Assembly (NCBI GenBank): GCA_963823335.1
Contig: CAWGLD010000004.1
Location: forward strand, 480,001 to 544,000
DNA: 64,000 nt
Reading direction: 5' to 3'
DNA from: an uncultured delta proteobacterium
GTDB lineage: Bacteria; Desulfobacterota; Desulfobacteria; Desulfobacterales; B30-G6
In this document: piece by piece, positions 54,143-64,000 of the stretch
Layout of the letters: every line of letters starts with the position of its first letter
Numbering within the stretch: position 1 is the first letter of the stretch
Notes under the pieces: generated by a model
What the model was told of the DNA's origin: nothing
Database searches by the model: none
What the model saw: only the letters and a program-made list of their open reading frames with translations
Made by a program: the position numbers and the translations under genes

Positions 54143-54219
54143 GGGCCGTTAGCTCAACCAGGCAGAGCACCTGACTCTTAATCAGTAGGTTGAAGGTTCG
54201 ATTCCTTCACGGCCCACCA
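54143..54219 (+). tRNA. tRNA-Lys(CTT)
   Basis: GGGCCGT...ACGGCCC-A-CCA, anticodon loop CTCTTAA. Confidence 0.97.
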
Positions 54220-54384: not shown

Positions 54385-54585
54385 TAAGCCATGCCTCCAT
54401 GCTCATTTGAACTGTAGTGTATTGATAAAGACCAACATAAAAACCCGAAATCCGTCTCTGGAAATCCGGTTTTCAGATTTTTGGTGCCGTTTCTGATATC
54501 TAAAAACACAACTTTTCAAAAATATGGCTATCTATATGTCAAAGGATGTTATCACAGGTTTGCCTAACCTGTTGATGAGTTGGAG
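54385..54585. repeat. 200-bp dispersed repeat, copy 2
   Basis: About 90% identical by eye to 16471-16670. Confidence 0.9.
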
Positions 54586-54852
54586 AATGGATTGTTCGGG
54601 GAGAATTTATGACTTGAAGTCCCTTGTAGATAGCTTTGCGGAGGCTCCGCGAGCTATACCCTTCGGGCTCGCTCGCCTCCCCAAAATCTATCTACAGGAA
54701 AGGTACCAGTTAGTGCAGGTTTCAAAGGCCTTGAAAAATCAGCTCCTTTCATTTCATTTTATTGCTGATTTAGAGCTTATCACATTGTCAAATTTTAGGG
54801 GATCACCATCCTTTTCTGCCTGTTTTGGTCCCCCAACGGGGGGCTAACAATG

Positions 54853-54933
54853 AGCCTCCCCGGGGCAAGCTCCGGGGTATCAATCTCTCATTTTAGATTT
54901 TTTTCGCGGCAAGCCGCGGGGAATTAAACCCTA
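54853..54933. repeat. Double-hairpin REP/IS200-end-like element
   Basis: CCCCGGGGC-AA-GCTCCGGGG and CGCGGC-AA-GCCGCG hairpins. Confidence 0.55.
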
Positions 54934-55386
54934 ATCGATATTAACTGTTTTGTCATCAATCATTTTCACCGTTGCCCGCTCCTTCCAGTTTTTCAGCGCA
55001 TACCAGATACCGATTTGCCTACCGTCAGGGGTGACTATCTCTGAGCCATTTTGAGTCAGGGGAAAACCATTTCTCGAAGGGTTTAGAATATCAAACCATC
55101 TTTTCAGTAAAGTTTGTGTAAGATCAACGGGTTTCCAAAATTTTGATTCGAGATGATACTCATTTCGAATCCCGATCACGGTTCTCGGTAAAGCATCCGG
55201 TCCATTGTAATAGTAAGTGTGATTCGGCGGTATCTGGTAAGTTTCAAATGCCGTTTTTACCTTATCACTATGAACGAGCTTTCCATAGTTTGCATTTCCA
55301 GCACAGCTTGCCACAAAAACAACAGCAACCGATAATAAAAATAATCTTGTCGTACAATTTGCCCGTAATCGATTTAACATATTCAT
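54931..55386 (-). CDS. Hypothetical lipoprotein
   Basis: Lipobox VASC after a hydrophobic stretch; RBS GGGAGA. Confidence 0.75.
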   Translation of the reverse strand: MNMLNRLRANCTTRLFLLSVAVVFVASCAGNANYGKLVHSDKVKTAFETYQIPPNHTYYYNGPDALPRTVIGIRNEYHLESKFWKPVDLTQTLLKRWFDILNPSRNGFPLTQNGSEIVTPDGRQIGIWYALKNWKERATVKMIDDKTVNID

Positions 55387-55480
55387 ATCTATCTCCCTCT
55401 GTAAAATCCGTGCTTAAATAGTTTTTATGGGATATCTTGACAGTGTCCTATTTTGTTTTGCCCCACCGGTGATATATGGA

Positions 55481-57260
55481 GAGACTGTCGAAAAAGGCAT
55501 TTCGGCGAACCGGTTCATCGCTCGACATTCTCGATTTCAATAGATCCATCTTTTTTACTTCAAGATGCTATCATATTTTACAGATTCAGCCTACTTATTT
55601 GGTCTGTACAGCCTATGCATGCCCGTAATTAGCCACTTTCTCTATATTGTGTACCATGCAGTACAGCAACCACTGAATATTTACCTTTATCTTTCCCCTT
55701 AAGTTAAGCCTGTCCATTCGTTTTTGGATGTGGATGTTTCCAAATACAGGTTCAACGATGGCAATTCTTCGCGGATAGATTTTACGACCTTTTTCAGATT
55801 CAATCTTCTTGATCATTTCATGGGATATATTCTTGCCAGACGCATCCACATAGAATGTAAAATGTCGTTGTTTAGCATCTTCATACCTAAGACACTTAGC
55901 CCTGAGTCGACAGGACCTACAATCTATCTCCCGAGAAATATATCTTTTTAAAAGTTTGCCCCTATGTAAACCAGGTTTCCCATTTCTCTTAAGCCGCTTA
56001 CCATTTGGGCAAACATAGTGGTCCTGCTTGCGGTCATGCTTAAAATCTGCAAATGTAAACTTTTTAGAGTTTGACTGATTGTTTATCCGACTTGAGAACC
56101 TCTCATCTCGATTACGGAATTTGTTGTCTGGAATATAGGCATCTAATTTTTCATCACTGCATTTATTAATATTCGTTACGCTGTGATAACTTGCATCGGC
56201 TGTTAATATCTTATCTTCGAAATAGTCCTCTGGCTTGCCGATGCTTTGAAGTTATTCTTTGGCACCATCAATCACAGGAGGCAGATTTTCATGATCAAGC
56301 CCTTTCCCTATTGCCTCGCCATTAACAATTACCTGGTGCTTGGAATCGACTAACGCCTGACAGTTATATCCCTGAACAGTTCCGTGTGAGGTATGCATTT
56401 TAACAGAATCGTTGTCAGTTACATTGCTGTGAAGTTCTTTTCCATAGGCACCAATTATTTTGTCGTTTTCTGAAAACCATTGCTCAATCTTTTCAGCCTG
56501 CCGCTTAAGTCTCTCAATTTGTTTGTCACGATTTGCAGCCATCTGAGTCTTGGCCCTATCGTCTGATTGGTCTTTTTCAAGATGATCTCGAACGAACGAC
56601 TTAATCTTATGTTCAAGCTTTTCTTTCTTTTTCTTCAAATCATCTATTTTCCCACTACATTCTTGGGATGCATTGGACGATAGCTTGCAGCCATCAATGG
56701 CAAAGAAGGTTCCGCCTAAAAGATTCTCTTGCTCGCATACTAAAAGAATATCGCTGAACAGAGGTTGAATTTGATCTTCCATAGAAGAAACGAATGAAGC
56801 AATGGTGCTGTGATCAGGACGTTGGTTGCATGACATCGCCATAAAAGTCACATTCTCACAACATGCTCGTTCGATTTGGCGTGATGATATCAACCCACGT
56901 GAATAAGCAAGCAAGACAACTTTCAGTAGTATCTTAGGATTATAGGCACTGCGGCCGGTATCGTCGTTTTGATACCTCGTATCAAATACGGACATATCCA
57001 TCCGCCGTTCCACAAGGGTGTGGATGGCGAACTCTAACGTCCCTGGCATCAATTGTTTTTGGAGGGAAACAGGTATCAATAAACTTTGAGAGTAGTCGTA
57101 GTGCTTATACTTTGCCATGCCTAATTCCTGTATGTTTGGCCATTGTCATTTGCTCATTTACCTAAACAATGACTAGCATAACGGTAGGATATGTCAACGG
57201 TTTATAGAGATAATTATACATCTTTTAAGGTTAGATAGGAGGATCTTTTTCGACAGTCTC
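55481..57260 (-). mobile_element. IS1182-family insertion sequence
   Basis: 16-bp perfect TIR GAGACTGTCGAAAAAG / CTTTTTCGACAGTCTC; GGA on both flanks. Confidence 0.92.
55613..57118 (-). pseudogene. IS1182 transposase with one in-frame TAA (56252-56254)
   Basis: GRSAYNPKILLK..SSRQIERAC, PDHSTI, IDGCK; same frame continues ADASY, YVCPNG, VEPVFG to 55613. Confidence 0.9.
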
Positions 57261-57351
57261 GGAGACAATCACCGGTTGAGACCGAGTTCATATATCATCA
57301 GTATCACAGTCTTATTAGTTGGGATAGGGCAACAGTAAAGGAAGATGGGCT

Positions 57352-57699
57352 TCAAGCAATCTTAACATTCTCTGCCCCTTTAAACAGTTGAATAATTTCC
57401 CTTACATAGGCGCATTCACATTCGGCCCGACACTGTCTTAATTCCTTCTTGTTCAAACAGTATTCTGGGCACTCATCTGTCCCAGTTTTTGGCTCCGAAA
57501 AAATTGGTCCGTCATAAAGATCGACAAAAAGATCGGCGGATAAGGTGATAGTATTCTTACAACTGTGATTGAAGTATAATAGGCCAGCTTCCAGATTTTT
57601 AAAATTCACTTGATAACCGACAATCATTATATCCTGGTCGGCAATAAAATCTCGGCGGGTTGACCATTTATGCCCGCAAACTTTACACTGTTTAAACAT
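57352..57699 (-). CDS. Cys-rich hypothetical protein (putative metal-binding)
   Basis: MFKQCKVC...HSC...CPEYC...CRAECEC. Confidence 0.75.
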   Translation of the reverse strand: MFKQCKVCGHKWSTRRDFIADQDIMIVGYQVNFKNLEAGLLYFNHSCKNTITLSADLFVDLYDGPIFSEPKTGTDECPEYCLNKKELRQCRAECECAYVREIIQLFKGAENVKIA

Positions 57700-57761
57700 G
57701 AAGGTGCTTTCGTAATTTTTAATATGTCGTCTGAAAACCAAGTATCAGGACGGTGTTGATG

Positions 57762-57930
57762 AATGGAGACAAGTCCAACTATCCGATAATTGAAAAAAAT
57801 GCAAGATACCATCTGGCTATGCCCACGGTACCACGGAGGGGTCTATAGATGCAAGATTTGGCCTGTTGTGATAATTTTCGCACACCGGTAAAATTTTAGG
57901 GGTCTGATATCTACCATTTTGTTGGAGGTA
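57762..57930 (-). repeat. 169-bp inter-module repeat, copy A
   Basis: Colinear without indels with 60808-60976 and 61773-61941; A vs C 133/169 identical by hand. Confidence 0.92.
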
Positions 57931-57957
57931 CCGGCAATCAAAGAAACCAGTCCAATA

Positions 57958-58488
57958 TTACTTGTTCAATAGTGACCACATTGAATTTGTCAGTTCGTGC
58001 TTCAGATGATCACCAGTACGGTAGTGATCATTTTTTGCCCAATCATCGCTTACTTGATGCATCCAAGTAATGGGTTTCGGAGGGACATCTTCCCATTCAA
58101 TGGTTGGTGGATAAAAGAGATAGATATCCCAAGCGACATGACCATCCCAACCAACACTTGTCGCAATCTCCTTTCCCGATATTTGTTTAGGATCATAGAA
58201 ATGTTGAATACGATCATCATTTAACAACTTGATGGTCGGTAATGCAGCTTCTAATGAATCTTCAGGCAGCATATTAATCCAAACAATGGACCCGTTGATA
58301 TCGGTCTTAGGAAAACTCTCAAACACATTCTTATGCACCGCCCGGGCACCTTGGTCACGTCACAATGGGCAAGTGGGGGATAGAAGGGCAAGGAATCGTA
58401 TTTTTCCCTTTCCTCTGTTGAAATGGTCTTTTAGATGGTCCAGCGAGCCCAACAGCTTGATATTGTCCTTTGTTTCGCCGGTTTTCAT
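57958..58488 (-). CDS. Thioredoxin-fold selenoprotein (CxxU), 176 aa
   Basis: RBS GGAG + ATG 58488; RFLALLSPT-C-P-L-U (TGA 58360-58362), in frame with ORF 57958-58338; SECIS-like hairpin follows. Confidence 0.85.
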
Positions 58489-58520
58489 TTTCGAATCTCC
58501 TAACTAAGAGTCTGAAGTCG

Positions 58521-59018
58521 CTAAGCCATTTTGAAAGATTTTTTCCCGGTCAATTTATCCACCACCTGGCGGACATCAGCCAAACATCAGCGGCCTTTGG
58601 GATTCTTATTGGCACAATCGCATCCATCGGCTTTTTTCTCGGCTGCAATTTCAGCCATTATCGTAGATCGGCCATTTTTCTGATAATCCTGTTCAATGTC
58701 CCTCCTGGTATGCTTAAAACAGTAGCAGACCAAATCATCCAAGTTAAATTCACTGGTTTTTAACGTATTTGATTTAGCGGTATCCCGCACCAGCTGGCCG
58801 TTTAATGATGCAACGTATCCTGCCTTTATCAGGGCATGCTTCATATCTTCGAATGAAAGCAATTCCGGATCATAGGAAACAACAGCTTTTTTCTCGGCAT
58901 TACTGGCGGTAGCCTCCTTTACCCCCTCAAGCCCTTCCAGGGCCTTTACCACTTTGGGCTCTCACCCCATTCAGGTCATACCTTGGATAGACAGTTCGAT
59001 CTTCAGATCTTTAGACAT
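58521..59018 (-). CDS. CopZ/HMA + BFD-like [2Fe-2S] fusion with three selenocysteines, 165 aa
   Basis: ELSIQGMT-U-MG-U-EPKVVKALEGLEGV (HMA GMTCxxC); LVCYCF...GCDCANKNPKGR-U-CLADVRQVV; TGA at 58971-73, 58962-64, 58587-89. Confidence 0.85.
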
Positions 59019-59196
59019 ACATTTCCCACCTTTGTTTATTCGTCACAACAAATTTCCAGATCAATAGTTTCACTGCGTTCAAGATTGTCAAACGATTCCA
59101 GTGCTTTCATTGCCCATTGTTCCCCGGGGCAACCAGATTCGGTGATTGCCACATTGAGAAATTCTACAAGCTCTTTAGCAAGAACCTGTTTTCTTA

Positions 59197-59496
59197 CTAT
59201 TTTGAATGCATAATTTCTCTGACTGCATTCGAAAGTGAATCCATGTCCGGTATGTTGTCAAAGGCTATGCGTTCATTGATAATAATCGATGGAACTGAAG
59301 GCATTCGCTTACAGATTGTACCGAGTTCAGCGTGCCTCATCACACCCTCTTTAGAACTGACATCGACCACCGTCCACTGGAGAACGCCCTTCTCAAATTC
59401 GGGGGCAATTTCTTCCAGTATTGCAAGCGCCAAATCGCACAACATGCACCCTTTCTTTTTTGCAACAATTTCTACAATTACGTTTTGCAAATCCAT
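59197..59496 (-). CDS. Thioredoxin/glutaredoxin-like protein (CxxC)
   Basis: GCMLCD, SVPSIIIN cis-Pro motif. Confidence 0.8.
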   Translation of the reverse strand: MDLQNVIVEIVAKKKGCMLCDLALAILEEIAPEFEKGVLQWTVVDVSSKEGVMRHAELGTICKRMPSVPSIIINERIAFDNIPDMDSLSNAVREIMHSK

Positions 59497-59923
59497 GTAC
59501 CAGAATCTCTATTACACATTTTTCAATTTTAAAATTAATCCTTTTTTCCAATGGCCCTATGTAAGGTCGAGTGGTGATAAATGGAGAGTAGTCACGGTTT
59601 AACAGACCCGTAAAAACCTGTGATTACATCACATCCCGCTCTAATAATTGCCACGATCGCCATTACAGATATCATTTTTCTTACAAATTTGCAAAAAAGG
59701 GAAAATCGTCGAAATGATCCTCCCGCATGATAACATAGAAATACAACGTGAGTGACGATTGCGTGTAGTGGTGATGTGTTATGGTATCTGCAATTATCGT
59801 AAAATACCGATGAGTTGGAGATAGTACGAGTTTACGACCTTCAAAGCGATCTGTGATATAAAAAGTGGCAAAACTAAGGTAGCTCTGCCACTTTAATATA
59901 TCCAACCTGTACAACTTAGATTA

Positions 59924-60715
59924 TTAGTTCAGCGCTTCAATAAAGCAGCCACCGCCACCGCCACCGCCACCGCCACCACCATCATCGTTACTAATAGTGG
60001 CGTTAAAAGTACCAGTGTCACCGGTTACAGAATACCACCAGCCTGACATGCTCACACCATTTATTTTACCCCAAAACGCAAATTCCTCGTCATTCGGACC
60101 ATCTCCATCGTCATGAAAATAGCCGTCAGGATGCAGCCAACCCTGTTTAAAGGCATAATCAGCACCATCAATTGTCACCGATCCGGTGATGTCGCCCAAG
60201 ATTTCTCCATTAGATTTAATTGAGATGACTATTTTACCAGAGTTATCTCCAATATAGGTGCCCTTATAAGTTCCTACATATTGGTCAATAAAGTCGTCTG
60301 AAGTGATTTTACTGCCAATTAAATTTCCTGAATCAGCTGAATCTGTATCGGACCATGTTCCCGTAACCGACCCATTAGATGAATCGACTTCAATGGCGAA
60401 TTGGTAGCCCCAAAGATACGAGGGTCCGACAGAATAATTTCCGACCGTGCCTGCTTCACCTTCATAGTTAATCGAACTTGATGGGCCGATATCACCCTGG
60501 CTGATATCTGTCGAATAAAACCAAAATTTTGCCCCTAAATTTATATCGAGTGCAAGATACCAAACACCATTATCATCGCCCGAATATGTGCCTTTATATA
60601 GGCCGTTATAATCTTCTTGGGCGCACCATGAATTTGGAGCCAATAAAAACAATAGAAGGGATAGGTATAGTAGGATGTGAGCTATTCTGCTTGGACTGTT
60701 GGTCACCATCAGCAT
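59924..60715 (-). CDS. Secreted protein with poly-Gly-CFI C-terminal tail
   Basis: Signal peptide; repeated YxGxYKGTYxGD; ends DDGGGGGGGGGGGCFIEALN. Confidence 0.8.
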   Translation of the reverse strand: MLMVTNSPSRIAHILLYLSLLLFLLAPNSWCAQEDYNGLYKGTYSGDDNGVWYLALDINLGAKFWFYSTDISQGDIGPSSSINYEGEAGTVGNYSVGPSYLWGYQFAIEVDSSNGSVTGTWSDTDSADSGNLIGSKITSDDFIDQYVGTYKGTYIGDNSGKIVISIKSNGEILGDITGSVTIDGADYAFKQGWLHPDGYFHDDGDGPNDEEFAFWGKINGVSMSGWWYSVTGDTGTFNATISNDDGGGGGGGGGGGCFIEALN

Positions 60716-60807
60716 TTTTCCTTTCAATTTGAGATTGATTTGATAACGCGGGGGGAAAGATAAATAGGTGAAAGTTATTAACATATTTGGAGATTGAATG
60801 CAATTGT

Positions 60808-60976
60808 AATGGAGAGATATCCAGTTATCAAGCTCAACCAAATTATTACCGATACCATCTGGTCATCACCAAGGTATTACGGCAGGGCCTATCAATGCAA
60901 GATTTGGCCCATTGCGATTATTTTCGCACACCGGTGATATTTTAGGGGTCTGATAACCTTGTTTTTGTAGGAGGTA
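60808..60976 (-). repeat. 169-bp inter-module repeat, copy B
   Basis: Colinear with copies A and C. Confidence 0.9.
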
Positions 60977-61035
60977 TCTTGATAACGTTTAAACATCTAC
61001 GGCTTGACCGTAGCATGTTTCTTGCTTGAATTATA

Positions 61036-61743
61036 TCAGATTGTTTTTTTTCTGATCAGGTAGATACCGTCACAGAAGGTGAGGAAGAGTTTCTCCACCC
61101 TGTTGTCAGCGTTTACCTCTTCGTTAAAGAGGGCTATGGCTTTACTGGACTCATCTTTGGGCTCAAAGATCCGACCGTACCACAGGGCATTGTCAACAAC
61201 AATGAGGCCGCCTTTCCGCAGAATCCTCATTGATTCGTGATAGTAAGCCAGGTAGCTGGTTTTATCAGCATCAATGAAGACAAGATCGGTTGCTTCGGAC
61301 GGCAGGGATTTTAGAATATCAATGGCTTCTCCCCGCTGCAGATTGATCTTGTGGCCCTGCGGACTCCTGTCAAAAAAACCTTGAGCGATGTCGGCATTGG
61401 CGGAATCATGTTCGATTGTCAGCACCTTGCCGTCTGGCGGAATTGATTCGGCCATAGCCAGGGCCGAGTAACCGGTGAATGTGCCGATATCGATCACATT
61501 CCTGAATCCCGATAGAACGATAATCAACTGCAGAAAACGTCCTTCAATCCGGCCGGTAAGCCAGTTGGGAGACTCGGTTTTGTTGAGAGTGTAGTTCTCA
61601 ATCTCTTCAAGAAGCGGAGACAAGGGTGAGGTGTGGTCTGCGGCATATTGTTCGGCTTCCCACGCCACCATGTCCATAAAGGAATGGATGGCCTTACCGG
61701 TTTCTTGCTGTCCGTCTGCGTTTTCAGAACTATTTTTTTCCAT
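61036..61743 (-). CDS. Class I SAM-dependent O-methyltransferase (caffeoyl-CoA OMT-like)
   Basis: IDIGTFTGYS, FIDADK, GGLIVVDNALW. Confidence 0.92.
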   Translation of the reverse strand: MEKNSSENADGQQETGKAIHSFMDMVAWEAEQYAADHTSPLSPLLEEIENYTLNKTESPNWLTGRIEGRFLQLIIVLSGFRNVIDIGTFTGYSALAMAESIPPDGKVLTIEHDSANADIAQGFFDRSPQGHKINLQRGEAIDILKSLPSEATDLVFIDADKTSYLAYYHESMRILRKGGLIVVDNALWYGRIFEPKDESSKAIALFNEEVNADNRVEKLFLTFCDGIYLIRKKTI

Positions 61744-61772
61744 TTTTCTCCTACCGATACCGGATACAGATA

Positions 61773-61941
61773 AATGGAGAGAAGTCCAGTTATCAGGTTT
61801 GATGTAAATATTGCCGATACCATATGGTCATGCCCAGGGTACCACGGAAGAGTCTATGGATGCAAGATTTGGCCTGTTGTGATACTTTTCGCACACCGGT
61901 AATATTTTGGGCGCTTGATATCTTTGTTTTTGTTGGAGCTG
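61773..61941 (-). repeat. 169-bp inter-module repeat, copy C
   Basis: Colinear with copies A and B. Confidence 0.92.
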
Positions 61942-61988
61942 TCTGCAATTTGGTGGGGTGTTATTTTCTGGTTTTCAATAGATTTTTG

Positions 61989-63671
61989 CTAAAGCAGGCC
62001 TCCTACAAAACAACCATAGCCATCACCACCACCGGCATCCGACGTAGAATCATATTCAGGGGATATATTAGCCTTGACACCTGGACCGCCTATATCAACA
62101 ATAATTCCATTTTCAGCTAAATCGTCATCTCCCCTTTTTCCATCAACAAAATACAGCGTGATGTTATTTTTATTAATTTTAGCTCCGGTCTGGCCGTTAA
62201 AAATGAATTCATACCAGTGATCAAATGGATCATCCGGGGTCAGGCCATACTTAGAATACGTGTTAAATGTAATCTCAGAGGGAAAATAAAAAGTTACGGA
62301 TGTAGCGCCCCCGATGCGAATCCCTGCCACGGTAAATGAAAAAAATCCATATGAGAAATCTACGCCGGACGGATAATTGGTGTCTGGTGGTTCAATAACC
62401 GCTTTACAATTTTTAATTGACGTGCCGGGAGGCGTTTCGAGCACCACGTAATCAGTCGCATTGTCAATCGCTAAAGAACTCACATTGCTTTGAAGACTGT
62501 CAAGTATACCATCATTATTTCCATCACCATCGATTGGACCAGCATTTTCCTCTTTATTGCTAACACCATCATTATCATAATCTGCTAAGAATACAGCTGT
62601 AATGGTCACGTCAGAATTGATAGATATTTTCTCAGGATTATCAGAAGAATCAAGCCCACCGCTCCATTCACTAAACAGCCACCCTGAATTGGCCGTTGCT
62701 GTCATCGTAATTAATGAACCCTTAGAGTAATAATCTTTTTCAGGATCAATCTCGACATTACCTGAACCAACGATATTTATGGTTATGCTCAACAACTTAT
62801 TCACTGTATTTATTGTATAGTTCTGATTTGATTGATTGTTAGTTACGTTACTGTAGCTCCGAGATGCCGGGGAAAAAATGTAACCCTCCTTTGTTGGGGT
62901 AACCGTACCACTCCAGCCATAAGTTACATTACGGCTGTAGTACCCTGAACTGTTTGTAGTATCTGTACCTCCGCCATTACCAAACGTTACCGTGACGCCA
63001 CTGAATCCGTTGCCTGACGAAGTGCGGACATAACCGGAAATGGTTCTATCCGGCTGAGCTTGTGTCCCGGTGTAGTTCTGGTTTGATTGATCGGCGTTTA
63101 CGTTACTGTAGCTCCGAGATGCCGGGGAAAAAATGTAACCCTCCTTTGTTGGGGTTACCGTACCGCTCCAGCCATAAGCTATCTCATGACTGTAATACCC
63201 AGAGCTATTTGTAGTGTCTGTACCTCCTCCGTTACTGAACGTAAGCGTAACTTCGTTAATCCCTCCGCCTGAAGATGTACGAACATAACCGGAAATGGTA
63301 TTGGCCTGATGAACCTGGGTCCCAATATAGTCTTGGTTTGATAGATTAGAAGTCACGTTAACGTAACTCAGTGATGCTGGGTTAAAGCTGAAACCATCTT
63401 TGGTAGGTATACTTTTACCACTCCAGCTATTTGGGATACCTATGCTGTAATAACCAGATTCGTTCGTGGTTGTGGATCTGACATTATCGAATGTAACATT
63501 GACTCCCTCAATCCCACTGCCTGATGATGTGCGGACATACCCGGATATCTCTTTTGCGAAACCATCAGCTACTCCAATGAATAATGAAATTATAAGCAGA
63601 ATAAACAAGTGTAATAAGCATACGATAGGAGATATATTGCTGTAAGCAGTTTTTAATTGTTCTGTTTTCAT
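61989..63671 (-). CDS. Surface protein: three ~85-aa beta repeats, InlB-B-like domain, choice-of-anchor U-like domain, Gly-rich CFV tail
   Basis: ISGYVRTSSG repeats (255-bp DNA period); GDGNNDGILDSLQSNV, ITLYFVDGKRGDDDL..NGIIVDIGGP; ends GGGDGYGCFVGGLL. Confidence 0.8.
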   Translation of the reverse strand: MKTEQLKTAYSNISPIVCLLHLFILLIISLFIGVADGFAKEISGYVRTSSGSGIEGVNVTFDNVRSTTTNESGYYSIGIPNSWSGKSIPTKDGFSFNPASLSYVNVTSNLSNQDYIGTQVHQANTISGYVRTSSGGGINEVTLTFSNGGGTDTTNSSGYYSHEIAYGWSGTVTPTKEGYIFSPASRSYSNVNADQSNQNYTGTQAQPDRTISGYVRTSSGNGFSGVTVTFGNGGGTDTTNSSGYYSRNVTYGWSGTVTPTKEGYIFSPASRSYSNVTNNQSNQNYTINTVNKLLSITINIVGSGNVEIDPEKDYYSKGSLITMTATANSGWLFSEWSGGLDSSDNPEKISINSDVTITAVFLADYDNDGVSNKEENAGPIDGDGNNDGILDSLQSNVSSLAIDNATDYVVLETPPGTSIKNCKAVIEPPDTNYPSGVDFSYGFFSFTVAGIRIGGATSVTFYFPSEITFNTYSKYGLTPDDPFDHWYEFIFNGQTGAKINKNNITLYFVDGKRGDDDLAENGIIVDIGGPGVKANISPEYDSTSDAGGGDGYGCFVGGLL

Positions 63672-64000
63672 TATCTTTGCATTTCTTGAGACTATAATCT
63701 GTTTAGCAGGGCGATGACGTCCTTTTTAATAAATATAAATTCCTAAAATGGGATCCTTGCCTTAAGAACAGAAGCACTATTGATTTATAATAAGAAGGAG
63801 TAGCGGTGAAATCAAATCAATCTGAGCTGGCTAGGATAACCTTCTTAACCATGAAATGATCCTTTTACGAAGGTTTGATATTAGGATGTGAAAAAAACTT
63901 CTAAAGAATACTAAAAAGCGGTGTTGATGTCAATAAATTTATATAAATCAACATATTGTATAATATCTTGCCACTTTATGGAAAACACTTTCTCAAAGAC

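Follow-up and report, generated by a model that had tools for sequence, protein, structure and literature searches.

Repeats at gene junctions of an uncultured Desulfobacterales bacterium suggest a recombinase-driven cassette system with promoter-bearing joints

Direct repeats of about 165 nucleotides (nt) separate unrelated genes in a 64,000-nt stretch of DNA (hereafter the window), which corresponds to C4:480001-544000 of the 4.37-Mb, 11-contig assembly of an uncultured Desulfobacterales bacterium (genome G000). The repeats of the window, their arrays elsewhere in the genome and a longer version that carries a tyrosine recombinase gene were analyzed. With a probability that we put at roughly 0.55, they belong to a recombinase-driven cassette system with promoter-bearing joints, integron-like in its action but not an integron. 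The hosts of the repeats are uncultured marine-sediment relatives of sulfate reducers, in which the system seems to carry out integron-like gene shuffling with different parts.

Junction repeats, cores and break points

A repeat search of the window revealed one direct-repeat family with three copies, at 57762-57933, 60808-60979 (the reference) and 61773-61944, all oriented as the minus-strand genes. An initial annotation of the window had described three ungapped copies in the same direction, and this was confirmed: without gaps the first copy is 72% and the third 78% identical to the middle one, far above chance. In the alignment, the conserved unit of about 165 nt runs from CTCCAAC to TCTCCAT (A, 57927-57763; B, 60973-60809; C, 61938-61774). 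Similarity has abrupt edges at both motifs, CTCCAAC (CTCCTAC in copy B) at the 5' side and TCTCCAT at the 3' side. The genes that flank the repeats are mutually unrelated, and their start codons are located 36-100 nt downstream of the core, the short site at the 3' edge. The parts of the three repeats are as follows (a slash marks the break point described below).

57763-57927, minus strand: junction repeat A, between the selenoprotein-type operon and the Cys-rich module
57758-57783, minus strand: core of repeat A, with left arm GATAGTTGGA, spacer, TCT/CCAT and a right arm ending in ATC; proposed crossover site
57825-57854, minus strand: promoter-like site of repeat A, with TTGCAT at 57854-57849, an 18-nt spacer and TG-n-TACCGT at 57833-57825
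57867-57882, minus strand: palindrome of repeat A (TGCGA-N6-TCACA), putatively an operator or a site for an accessory protein; equivalent in repeat B at 60913-60928
60809-60973, minus strand: junction repeat B, with ends CTCCTAC and TCTCCAT, between the O-methyltransferase module and the Gly-run/CFI-tail module
60815-60809, minus strand: TCTCCAT of the core of repeat B
60900-60895 and 60876-60871, minus strand: promoter-like hexamers of repeat B
61774-61938, minus strand: junction repeat C, between the gene of a 560-amino-acid (aa) secreted protein and the O-methyltransferase module; profile (nhmmer) score 202
61780-61774, minus strand: TCTCCAT of the core of repeat C

A profile built from the three window copies matched the genome 88 times at E<0.001, with 50 full-length matches, and a second profile built from these 50 copies gave 87 matches. 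Ten clusters of at least three copies contain 73 of the 87, and 71 of the 73 share the direction of their cluster. This common direction is not the random orientation that the initial annotation had named for the end of an insertion sequence or of a miniature inverted-repeat transposable element (MITE), and inverted ends are lacking. Within the arrays, 111 of 145 crude open reading frames (ORFs) of at least 80 aa, and 85% of ORF bases, are co-oriented. The arrangement is that of an integron-type array, with variable modules in the same direction bounded by repeated sites. The array of the window continues beyond the window end, with more repeat pieces at C4:543986-546798. The largest array, at C7:199.7-235.9 kb, has 19 copies. 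Its genes include those of a URO-D-family protein, SUI1, a GDSL lipase, an MFS transporter, a DnaJ-domain protein, a Ni-superoxide dismutase, a YceI-rhodanese protein, an acyltransferase, serine hydrolases, a thioesterase and an SDR protein, along with several without a family.

Nine of the 47 tRNA genes of the genome lie within 6 kb of a repeat copy. The 19-copy array is contained in an island of about 43 kb (C7:198846-241923) that begins with a tRNA-Arg gene (198846-198921). A 58-nt, 81% identical copy of the 3' half of this tRNA stands at the far end (241868-241923), beside a gene for a 375-aa classical integrase (240497-241624). Arrays also contain reverse transcriptase genes of group II introns and the 5' ends of such introns, at C7:233110-234432 in G000 and in loci L032 and L101 of the related genome G007; in G007 an intron stands behind a small hairpin, which itself directly adjoins the CTCCAA that ends two modules.

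Among 41 related genomes searched, the repeat family was found in 15, G000 counted. Its own taxonomic family accounts for 12 of 14 and a second family in the order for one; one more is a weak match. A plasmid collection contained no match to the repeat.

To locate the ends of exchanged segments, array regions of G001, G004, G005 and G007 were compared with those of G000. Shared segments (144 pairs) were found with the repeats masked and then re-extended unmasked, scoring being such that extension stops below about 83% identity. The 5' ends of shared segments fell within 30 nt of a core in 37 of 196 cases (chance, about 0.9%) and near a repeat start in one. Of the 3' ends, 15 of 200 fell within 30 nt of a repeat start and six near the next core. 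Binned by 20 nt, the 5' ends number 33 within 20 nt of the core and only two inside the 140-nt body; the 3' ends form two groups, 14 at the repeat start and four at the next core, with four more inside. The main break point is thus the 3' end, TCT/CCAT, between the inverted arms GATAAYTGG and CCATnTATC, and the second is the 5' CTCCAAC. The sharp 3' end noticed in the initial annotation is therefore also the main break point. No break points were found at the palindrome TGCGA-N6-TCACA. The initial annotation had taken this sequence for either a CRP-type box or a recombinase core; the palindrome itself is present, and the second option fails, the breaks being at TCT/CCAT and CTCCAAC instead.

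Individual modules illustrate these breaks. Two copies of an Lcl_C-domain gene in C7 are 99.6% identical over 1113 nt; identity starts at the TCTCCAT of the front repeat and stops at the TCTCCAT of the rear repeat, and the two upstream repeats are only about 70% alike. Within-genome duplicates are few in G000, this being the one clean case, and G007 has two more with starts or ends at cores. In G001, G004, G005 and G007 the O-methyltransferase module of the window is found again, 94-99% identical and each time with different neighbours. It has three different left neighbours in G000, G001 and G005, the common sequence beginning at (T)CCAT, and in G004 and G007 the gene stands in another context. 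Between G000 and G001 the 99% identity of this module stops 10 nt into the next repeat (B), the repeat itself being about 80% alike. The copy of the lipoprotein module in G004 begins exactly at the core, behind a normal repeat. The initial annotation had proposed asking whether downstream genes vary while the repeat stays constant, and they do: at none of 129 joints (four species, selected loci) are the two 200-nt flanks adjacent anywhere else in the compared sequences, with the repeat present or not. Metagenome contigs from four runs over window positions 54500-64000 are short, with collapsed repeats, and many of their apparent joints do no more than connect one repeat copy to another. The contigs also have loose ends at 60809 and 61751 that are compatible with other neighbours, the source possibly being other species.

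The core extends beyond the family. Its 12-mer pattern, TCTCCATnnATC, occurs 86 times in the genome, compared with about eight occurrences expected. Fifty-eight of these end repeats of the family described above (family 1). Eighteen of the other 28 lie within 10 kb of an array, 16 of them co-oriented with it and located behind other junction types. What precedes these extra cores is a second-family junction element, a short element of a third type or, at the joint split by an insertion sequence, no element. Around the core, GATAACTGGA on the left and TCCATGTATC on the right match as inverted arms at eight of 10 places, and the putative site has the layout of a double-strand site of the Xer, Cre or FLP type. 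An exact scan for the core pattern, with one genome per species, matched 49 stretches. Of these, 43 are in metagenome-assembled genomes labelled delta proteobacterium, Desulfobacterales or Thermodesulfobacteriota, and the other six are about the chance expectation for 19 fixed bases.

A few classes of module 5' ends were observed. Their first 20-45 nt carry conserved post-core words of their own, e.g. …TGATATTTGGTTTTC or …TTATTAGCG, examples being at C7:213586-213610 and at window positions 57735-57750. The word …TGATATTTGGTTTTC is an additional direct copy of the left-arm word.

Two related junctions reported in the initial annotation could be assigned: 59581-59587 is the core of a second-family element and 55476-55482 a core split by an insertion sequence.

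59581-59820, minus strand: second-family junction element of about 240 nt, starting with CTCCAAC and ending with TCTCCAT, between the CFI-tail module and the selenoprotein-type operon
55471-55482, minus strand: core TCTCCATATATC before the lipoprotein module; its other half (…GTCTCC) is at 57261-57266, across the insertion sequence
55481-57260, minus strand: IS1182-like insertion sequence in the core, with inverted ends GAGACTGTCG… and a broken transposase frame

The second-family element is also found in G007, and related cores are located at C1:1511034, C1:1769473, C7:225778 and C9:46733. A 30-nt inverted repeat stands at window positions 54625-54696, and the same hairpin word occurs 5' of the second-family junction in G007 and of one recombinase copy in C9. 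The split joint 55476/57266 carried no repeat before the insertion. Further IS1182-like copies lie in cores at C7:~231150-232950, with an intact 501-aa frame, and at C1:~1767114. All three stand exactly in a junction core, flanked by …GTCTCC and, at the opposite edge, TCCAT; the element seems to target the core.

The recombinase-bearing version and the putative promoter

Of the 11 PF00589 matches in the genome, five lie in or beside arrays, and two of these are copies of one gene that stands within the repeat, on the opposite strand. The co-occurring recombinase that the initial annotation proposed looking for is thus found inside a long, 1.1-kb version of the repeat. Its gene is located between the palindrome and the GGTATCGG block, with a terminator hairpin behind it and a ribosome-binding site and a promoter ahead. 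The unit in C1 of G000 and that in G015, a genome from another family of the same order, share the order left part, terminator, opposite-strand recombinase, promoter, right part with core. The unit of G001 matches over the extent of its contig, which starts inside the left part; the module behind it is the O-methyltransferase. The copy in C9 of G000 is truncated. A coding parent with the same two ends as the 170-nt repeat therefore exists. Two "split" repeats in C1 keep the terminator-like hairpin of the recombinase gene and have a different promoter in its place, and look like internal-deletion intermediates.

The recombinase is a 278-aa "simple" Xer-like tyrosine recombinase whose only Pfam match is PF00589. 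Its best NCBIfam model is of the archaeal XerA type (98.6 bits, below the cut-off of 220), and the nearest solved structures are those of XerA and XerD. Models of the integron integrase IntI scored far below their cut-offs (TIGR02249, 32.3 bits against 265; PRK15417, 28.9 against 435). The IntDes subgroup was considered and rejected because, in the excerpted account of it, IntDes carries an arm-binding domain and is Desulfovibrio-specific (PMC8138268). Elsewhere in the genome there are two full-length Xer-like genes, at C3:153957 and C5:425746. Relatives of the recombinase in the plasmid collection reach 31% identity at best. HU/IHF-like genes adjoin Xer-like recombinase copies in G000 (C9:37479-37775) and in G007 (C16; L022 and L029), and their products are possible accessory factors.

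Among the candidates scored, 4657 metagenome proteins were related to the recombinase at an E of 1e-10 or better, the closest being mostly on contigs of 1.0-1.9 kb. Ends were analyzed in the best 80 of 282 loci. At recombinase identity of at least 68%, a CTCCAAC-type left end was present 95-150 nt past the stop codon in 29 of 41 loci, and a TCTC(C/A)AT-type right end 95-150 nt ahead of the start codon in 27 of 38. Below 68% the corresponding counts were 0 of 22 and 3 of 25. Beyond the left end, the adjacent 120 nt showed a relationship in only 3 of 351 pairs. Since the ends are fixed and the outer flanks unrelated, the 1.1-kb unit is a discrete element that has come to lie in many different surroundings. 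The recombinase family is very common in sediment metagenomes, where most of its copies are on contigs of about 1.1 kb, and such elements probably break many assemblies.

In G000, G001, G002, G007, G010 and G015, the start codon and ribosome-binding site of the recombinase gene are one base out of frame with the gene body, and the two reading frames meet at a run of nine A (A9). Among 75 metagenome loci with an intact 5' region, A9 was found in 45, the ATG being recognisably out of frame in 38 of these. The other runs were A8 (four loci, in frame), A10 (three) and A8G (two). Relatives below about 68% identity have the interrupted sequence AAAGAAAA and are in frame, and in-frame 278-aa recombinases exist in the protein collection. 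As A9 is kept while neighbouring codons vary, and is seen across assembly kinds, we read it as programmed, with expression that would be limited by slippage; phase variation by replication slippage is an alternative. Transcriptional slippage occurs at A runs longer than seven, according to the excerpted main text of the GeneTack programmed-frameshift paper, which does not mention integrases or recombinases (PMC3711429).

Conservation and folding were assessed on 126 full-length copies from four species. Both TGCGA-N6-TC(A/G)CA and TTGCAT-N18-TACCnT, as given in the initial annotation, were recovered in the alignment, the preceding TG being present in A and C and absent in B. Each letter specified in TG-n-TAnnnT, and each letter of TTGCAT except its C, is about 90% conserved; the C of TTGCAT is 70% conserved, and the middle of the second hexamer is variable. 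An outward promoter-like site stands about 60-75 nt ahead of the core in all three versions of the repeat. In the recombinase unit, which occurs in a minority of genomes, it is TTGACA-N17/18-TA(A/T)TTC, by sequence pointing away from the recombinase gene, and its -10 region overlaps the gene's own promoter (TTGC(C/A)G-N17-TAGAAT) on the opposite strand. The split repeats carry TTGACA-N18-TAGACT. The best argument that the joints transcribe the modules behind them is that three unrelated promoter-like sequences are found at the same distance from the core, and a promoter function of the joints appears plausible.

The palindrome stands about 105 nt ahead of the core, with columns at least 90% conserved. 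Its centre is about 21 nt ahead of the -35 hexamer and about 57-61 nt ahead of the predicted start (expected about 7 nt downstream of TACCnT), a distance at which class I activators of the CRP/FNR type bind. It is better read as a putative operator or accessory site. A sigma-54 reading of the sequence GGCC-N9-GC was also tried and rejected, the spacing being one short and the GG unconserved.

No sign of a conserved fold was detected in the repeats. Single-strand DNA folding of 50 copies gave mean z values of -0.81 for the top and -0.60 for the bottom strand, no better than shuffles; RNAalifold returned no consensus structure for the 126 copies, and Rfam at E up to 1 gave no match, tRNA or other, at the repeats. 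The bulged hairpin of the initial annotation was not borne out as a structure: changes in the GGTATC…GATAAC stem are one-sided (CG to CA in 28 copies, GC to AC in 21), with no compensatory change in the 126 copies. The lack of a fold and of an Rfam match, together with the direct ends, argues that the repeats are neither attC sites, nor structured RNAs, nor inverted-end MITEs, and the earlier statement that the sites are not canonical attC holds.

Proposed mechanism, alternatives and known systems

In the order of its parts, a junction element consists of CTCCAAC, the palindromic site, the outward promoter-like site, a short leader and the core with its GATAAYTGG and CCATnTATC arms. The 170-nt form would be a recombinase-less derivative of the 1.1-kb element, as suggested by shared ends and intermediate forms. 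The recombinase is expected to bind the inverted arms and to swap strands at TCT/CCA. Two direct cores would then free the intervening stretch as a single-site circle, and such a circle would be inserted by the same reaction run in reverse, which would explain the core-to-core duplicates. Less often, exchange may take place at CTCCAAC ends, involving either a pair of them or one 5' end together with a core; this would explain the long-term independent assortment of modules and repeats. As a result, modules would be shuffled, duplicated, gained and lost. Each joint would transcribe the module that follows it, probably under a regulator that binds the palindrome, a CRP/FNR-type or ArgR-type protein being conceivable from the sequence. 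The cer and psi sites carry one-sided accessory sequences, and the long arm on one side of the core, with its palindrome, may likewise give control or direction.

Several observations weigh against this scheme. Of the 13 genomes in the taxonomic family that bear the repeat, only four were found to have the close recombinase clade (G000, G001 and G002 among them), and the repeat-rich genomes G004, G005, G007 and G012-G014 have no recombinase or only distant or partial copies. G006 has a partial recombinase of the close clade, with no repeat found. Both G000 copies are out of frame at A9 or truncated. Since few genomes carry the recombinase, most arrays must be fossil, depend on recombinase supplied in trans by transient copies or be the substrate of another enzyme, e.g. 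the host Xer. Co-variation of recombinase and site is not independent evidence, because the two are physically linked. The two end motifs differ, and a tyrosine recombinase does not normally tolerate this in one reaction; outside family 1 the left arm of the core is poorly conserved. The rear repeat is usually not inherited with its module between species, judging by the 3' ends, so a single crossover site is insufficient. One rearrangement, between C4 of G000 and G007, has its joints inside the repeat body and resembles homologous recombination. Neither an empty site in the 129 joints nor circular joints or same-species presence/absence polymorphism in the compared sequences were seen. Judged by consensus, the promoter-like site is weak, and it is absent from the output of a consensus promoter/terminator scan, which found 13 sites compared with 17.1 ± 4.9 in shuffles. 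We hold our figure down because recombinases are few, circles, empty sites and polymorphism were not seen, and metagenome contigs are too fragmented.

An alternative explanation is that the repeat descends from the 1.1-kb parent as a miniature, non-autonomous insertion element and inserts by itself into a short target, …TCT/CCAT…, before genes; the arrays would then be hot spots in tRNA-linked islands and the genes would not be cassettes. The discrete recombinase unit, with fixed ends and unrelated flanks, agrees with this, as do CTCCA at both ends of the repeat, similar to a duplicated or shared target, the split joint without a repeat, and the proximity of nine tRNA genes to repeats, with the C7 array inside the tRNA-Arg island. 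Between species, moreover, modules usually end at the repeat start, as if the repeat acted as its own unit. Against it stand gene-plus-repeat units duplicated from core to core, and module 5' ends that are conserved past the core in a few classes. No empty site was found among the 129 joints, and the core also stands ahead of modules behind unrelated junction families. We regard this explanation as unlikely, though the likeliest of the alternatives. A reused regulated promoter module, shuffled by homologous recombination between its copies with no dedicated recombinase, would account for the promoter and operator features being the best conserved, for the absence of a recombinase from most repeat-bearing genomes and for the one rearrangement with joints inside the repeat; the recombinase element would merely have landed in one copy. 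There are precedents, in the excerpted reports, for shuffling with mini-circles at PeSLs (PMC2839356) and for reuse of a promoter before unrelated genes (PMC3575422). On the other hand, 33 break points cluster within 20 nt of the core and only two lie in the 140-nt body, and copies that are 72-85% alike are a poor substrate for homologous exchange. The recombinase unit has both exact repeat ends across two bacterial families and in many metagenome loci, and the 12-nt core is common to otherwise unrelated junction families. Homologous shuffling of a promoter module is, in our judgement, somewhat less probable still.

The remaining possibilities have, in our view, a very low probability. Location upstream of genes in the same direction and the possible GGTATC…GATAAC stem could indicate a family of cis-regulatory RNA leaders or small RNA genes, but this is very improbable given the lack of an Rfam match, of a consensus structure and of compensatory changes. 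A single-strand HUH element of the IS200/IS605 type, inserted 3' of a short target and ending in the same word, would lack inverted ends, have the same pentamer at its left flank and right end, and show a strong orientation bias, all as observed; yet none of the eight Y1-transposase matches is in or beside an array, subterminal hairpins are absent and the linked gene is an Xer-type tyrosine recombinase, so we give such an element very little credence. Least probable of all is that the system is a genuine integron, or a CALIN (an attC cluster that has no integrase), whose attC sites are exceptionally long. Unrelated genes in one direction with one conserved site per joint are what it predicts, and CTCCAAC resembles RYYYAAC, the attC box consensus. 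The direct ends, folding not above that of shuffles and an integrase-model score of 32 bits against 265 speak against it.

The recombinase-driven cassette system that we favour nevertheless shares much with integrons: long same-direction arrays of mostly single-gene modules with one site per joint and a content that varies among relatives, and a tyrosine recombinase placed back-to-back with an outward promoter-like sequence beside a putative recombination site. Most of its arrays have no recombinase, as in CALINs, and ORF-less promoter cassettes reportedly occur in integrons too (PMC6557892). It differs in having a simple Xer-like enzyme in place of IntI, whose frame needs a shift at A9, and sites of about 165 nt of double-strand type with direct ends and no hairpin. 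It also has a promoter-like site at every joint, the recombinase within a joint and several copies and arrays per genome. The inference in the initial annotation of an integron-like capture platform or portable promoter system is supported, at the level of sequence, by the tests it had itself proposed.

Like Xer-dif systems and the pdif modules of Acinetobacter plasmids, as described in the excerpted text of PMC9771954, the present system has an Xer-like enzyme, a putative core of two inverted arms of about 9-11 bp with a short spacer, and site-bounded modules. The flanking sites of pdif modules are inversely oriented in that account (PMC9771954), whereas here they are direct (71 of 73 arrayed copies). 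The recombinase here is also dedicated and element-borne, and the sites are chromosomal, numbered in tens and located at promoter-bearing joints. The one-sided long accessory arm, with a palindromic protein site about 100 nt off, is reminiscent of cer. PeSLs of T4-type phages resemble the present repeats, in the excerpted description, as repeated promoter modules between non-essential genes with gene swap, gain and loss; they differ in being phage-borne, in combining a promoter with a terminator stem-loop, in exchanging between repeats and in having no recombinase of their own (PMC2839356). Here the break points are at repeat ends, there is no conserved stem-loop and a recombinase-bearing version exists. 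As with a MITE and its parent insertion sequence, the short non-coding form is far more numerous than the coding version that shares its ends. Neighbouring genes can be driven by MITEs that carry promoters, Correia elements being an example. Unlike MITEs, the repeats have no inverted ends, a tyrosine recombinase and not a DDE or HUH enzyme, a uniform orientation and a distribution confined to arrays. Tycheposons, according to the excerpted preprint (bioRxiv 10.1101/2020.12.28.424599), also involve remodelling of tRNA-side islands by tyrosine recombinases, with stacked insertions and degraded remnants, but they are kilobases long, with replication modules and partial tRNA flanks; the joints described here are not tRNA-derived, and the units are single genes. 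Finally, putative mobile promoters are likewise near-identical promoter regions before unrelated genes, reported in the excerpted text as a pattern without a mechanism (PMC3575422), whereas the present repeats have defined ends and break points, and a recombinase is linked to them.

More tentatively, the system may be an independently evolved counterpart of integrons in uncultured marine-sediment Desulfobacterales. It would use a minimal Xer-like recombinase dependent on A9 slippage and lox/dif-like double-strand sites at every joint. ORF-less "promoter cassettes" would alternate with gene cassettes whose genes are expressed from a standard regulated promoter, over about 150 kb in several arrays beside tRNA genes. 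In the literature covered, subscription journals being outside that coverage, we found no account of this repeat family, none of Desulfobacterales cassette arrays and none of a tyrosine recombinase that depends on slippage. To our knowledge, integrons, with their special integrase and folded single-strand sites, are the only well-understood bacterial platform dedicated to gene capture and expression. If our interpretation is correct, a second platform, made of a plain Xer-like recombinase, double-strand sites and a portable regulated promoter, would show that platforms of this kind arise repeatedly in evolution. It would explain the large flexible gene pool of abundant uncultured sediment bacteria, the arrays of this genome containing about 145 ORFs, and would offer for study a compact pair of recombinase and site as well as a recombinase limited by a frame shift.

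Genes of the window modules

Six modules are bounded by these junctions in the window.

54931-55386, minus strand: module 1, 151-aa lipoprotein-like gene, no Pfam match; last module before a tRNA-Lys gene (54143-54219)
57352-57699, minus strand: module 2, small Cys-rich protein, no Pfam match
57958-59496, minus strand: module 3, three-gene redox/metal operon
59197-59496, minus strand: glutaredoxin-like gene of module 3
58587-59018, minus strand: HMA-domain gene of module 3, with two in-frame TGA codons
57958-58488, minus strand: thioredoxin-like gene of module 3, with one in-frame TGA codon
59924-60715, minus strand: module 4, secreted protein with a Gly run and a CFI end
61036-61743, minus strand: module 5, O-methyltransferase (PF01596)
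61989-63671, minus strand: module 6, 560-aa secreted repeat protein

In the HMA-domain gene (58587-59018), both cysteines of the GMTCxxC motif are encoded by TGA (GMT-U-MG-U, with U for selenocysteine). The thioredoxin-like gene (57958-58488) has CPL-U, and its frame, as that of the HMA-domain gene, is open only with TGA read as a residue. Both are probably selenoprotein genes, and an HMA motif with two selenocysteines would be unusual.

The two secreted proteins (59924-60715 and 61989-63671) have a C-terminal Gly-rich stretch followed by C-F-(I/V) and four to five further residues, with no membrane helix. These tails may represent a common signal for C-terminal processing or anchoring. The 560-aa gene contains, at 62815-63548, three tandem repeats of 255 nt that are 71-91% identical and encode CarboxypepD_reg/Ig-like domains.

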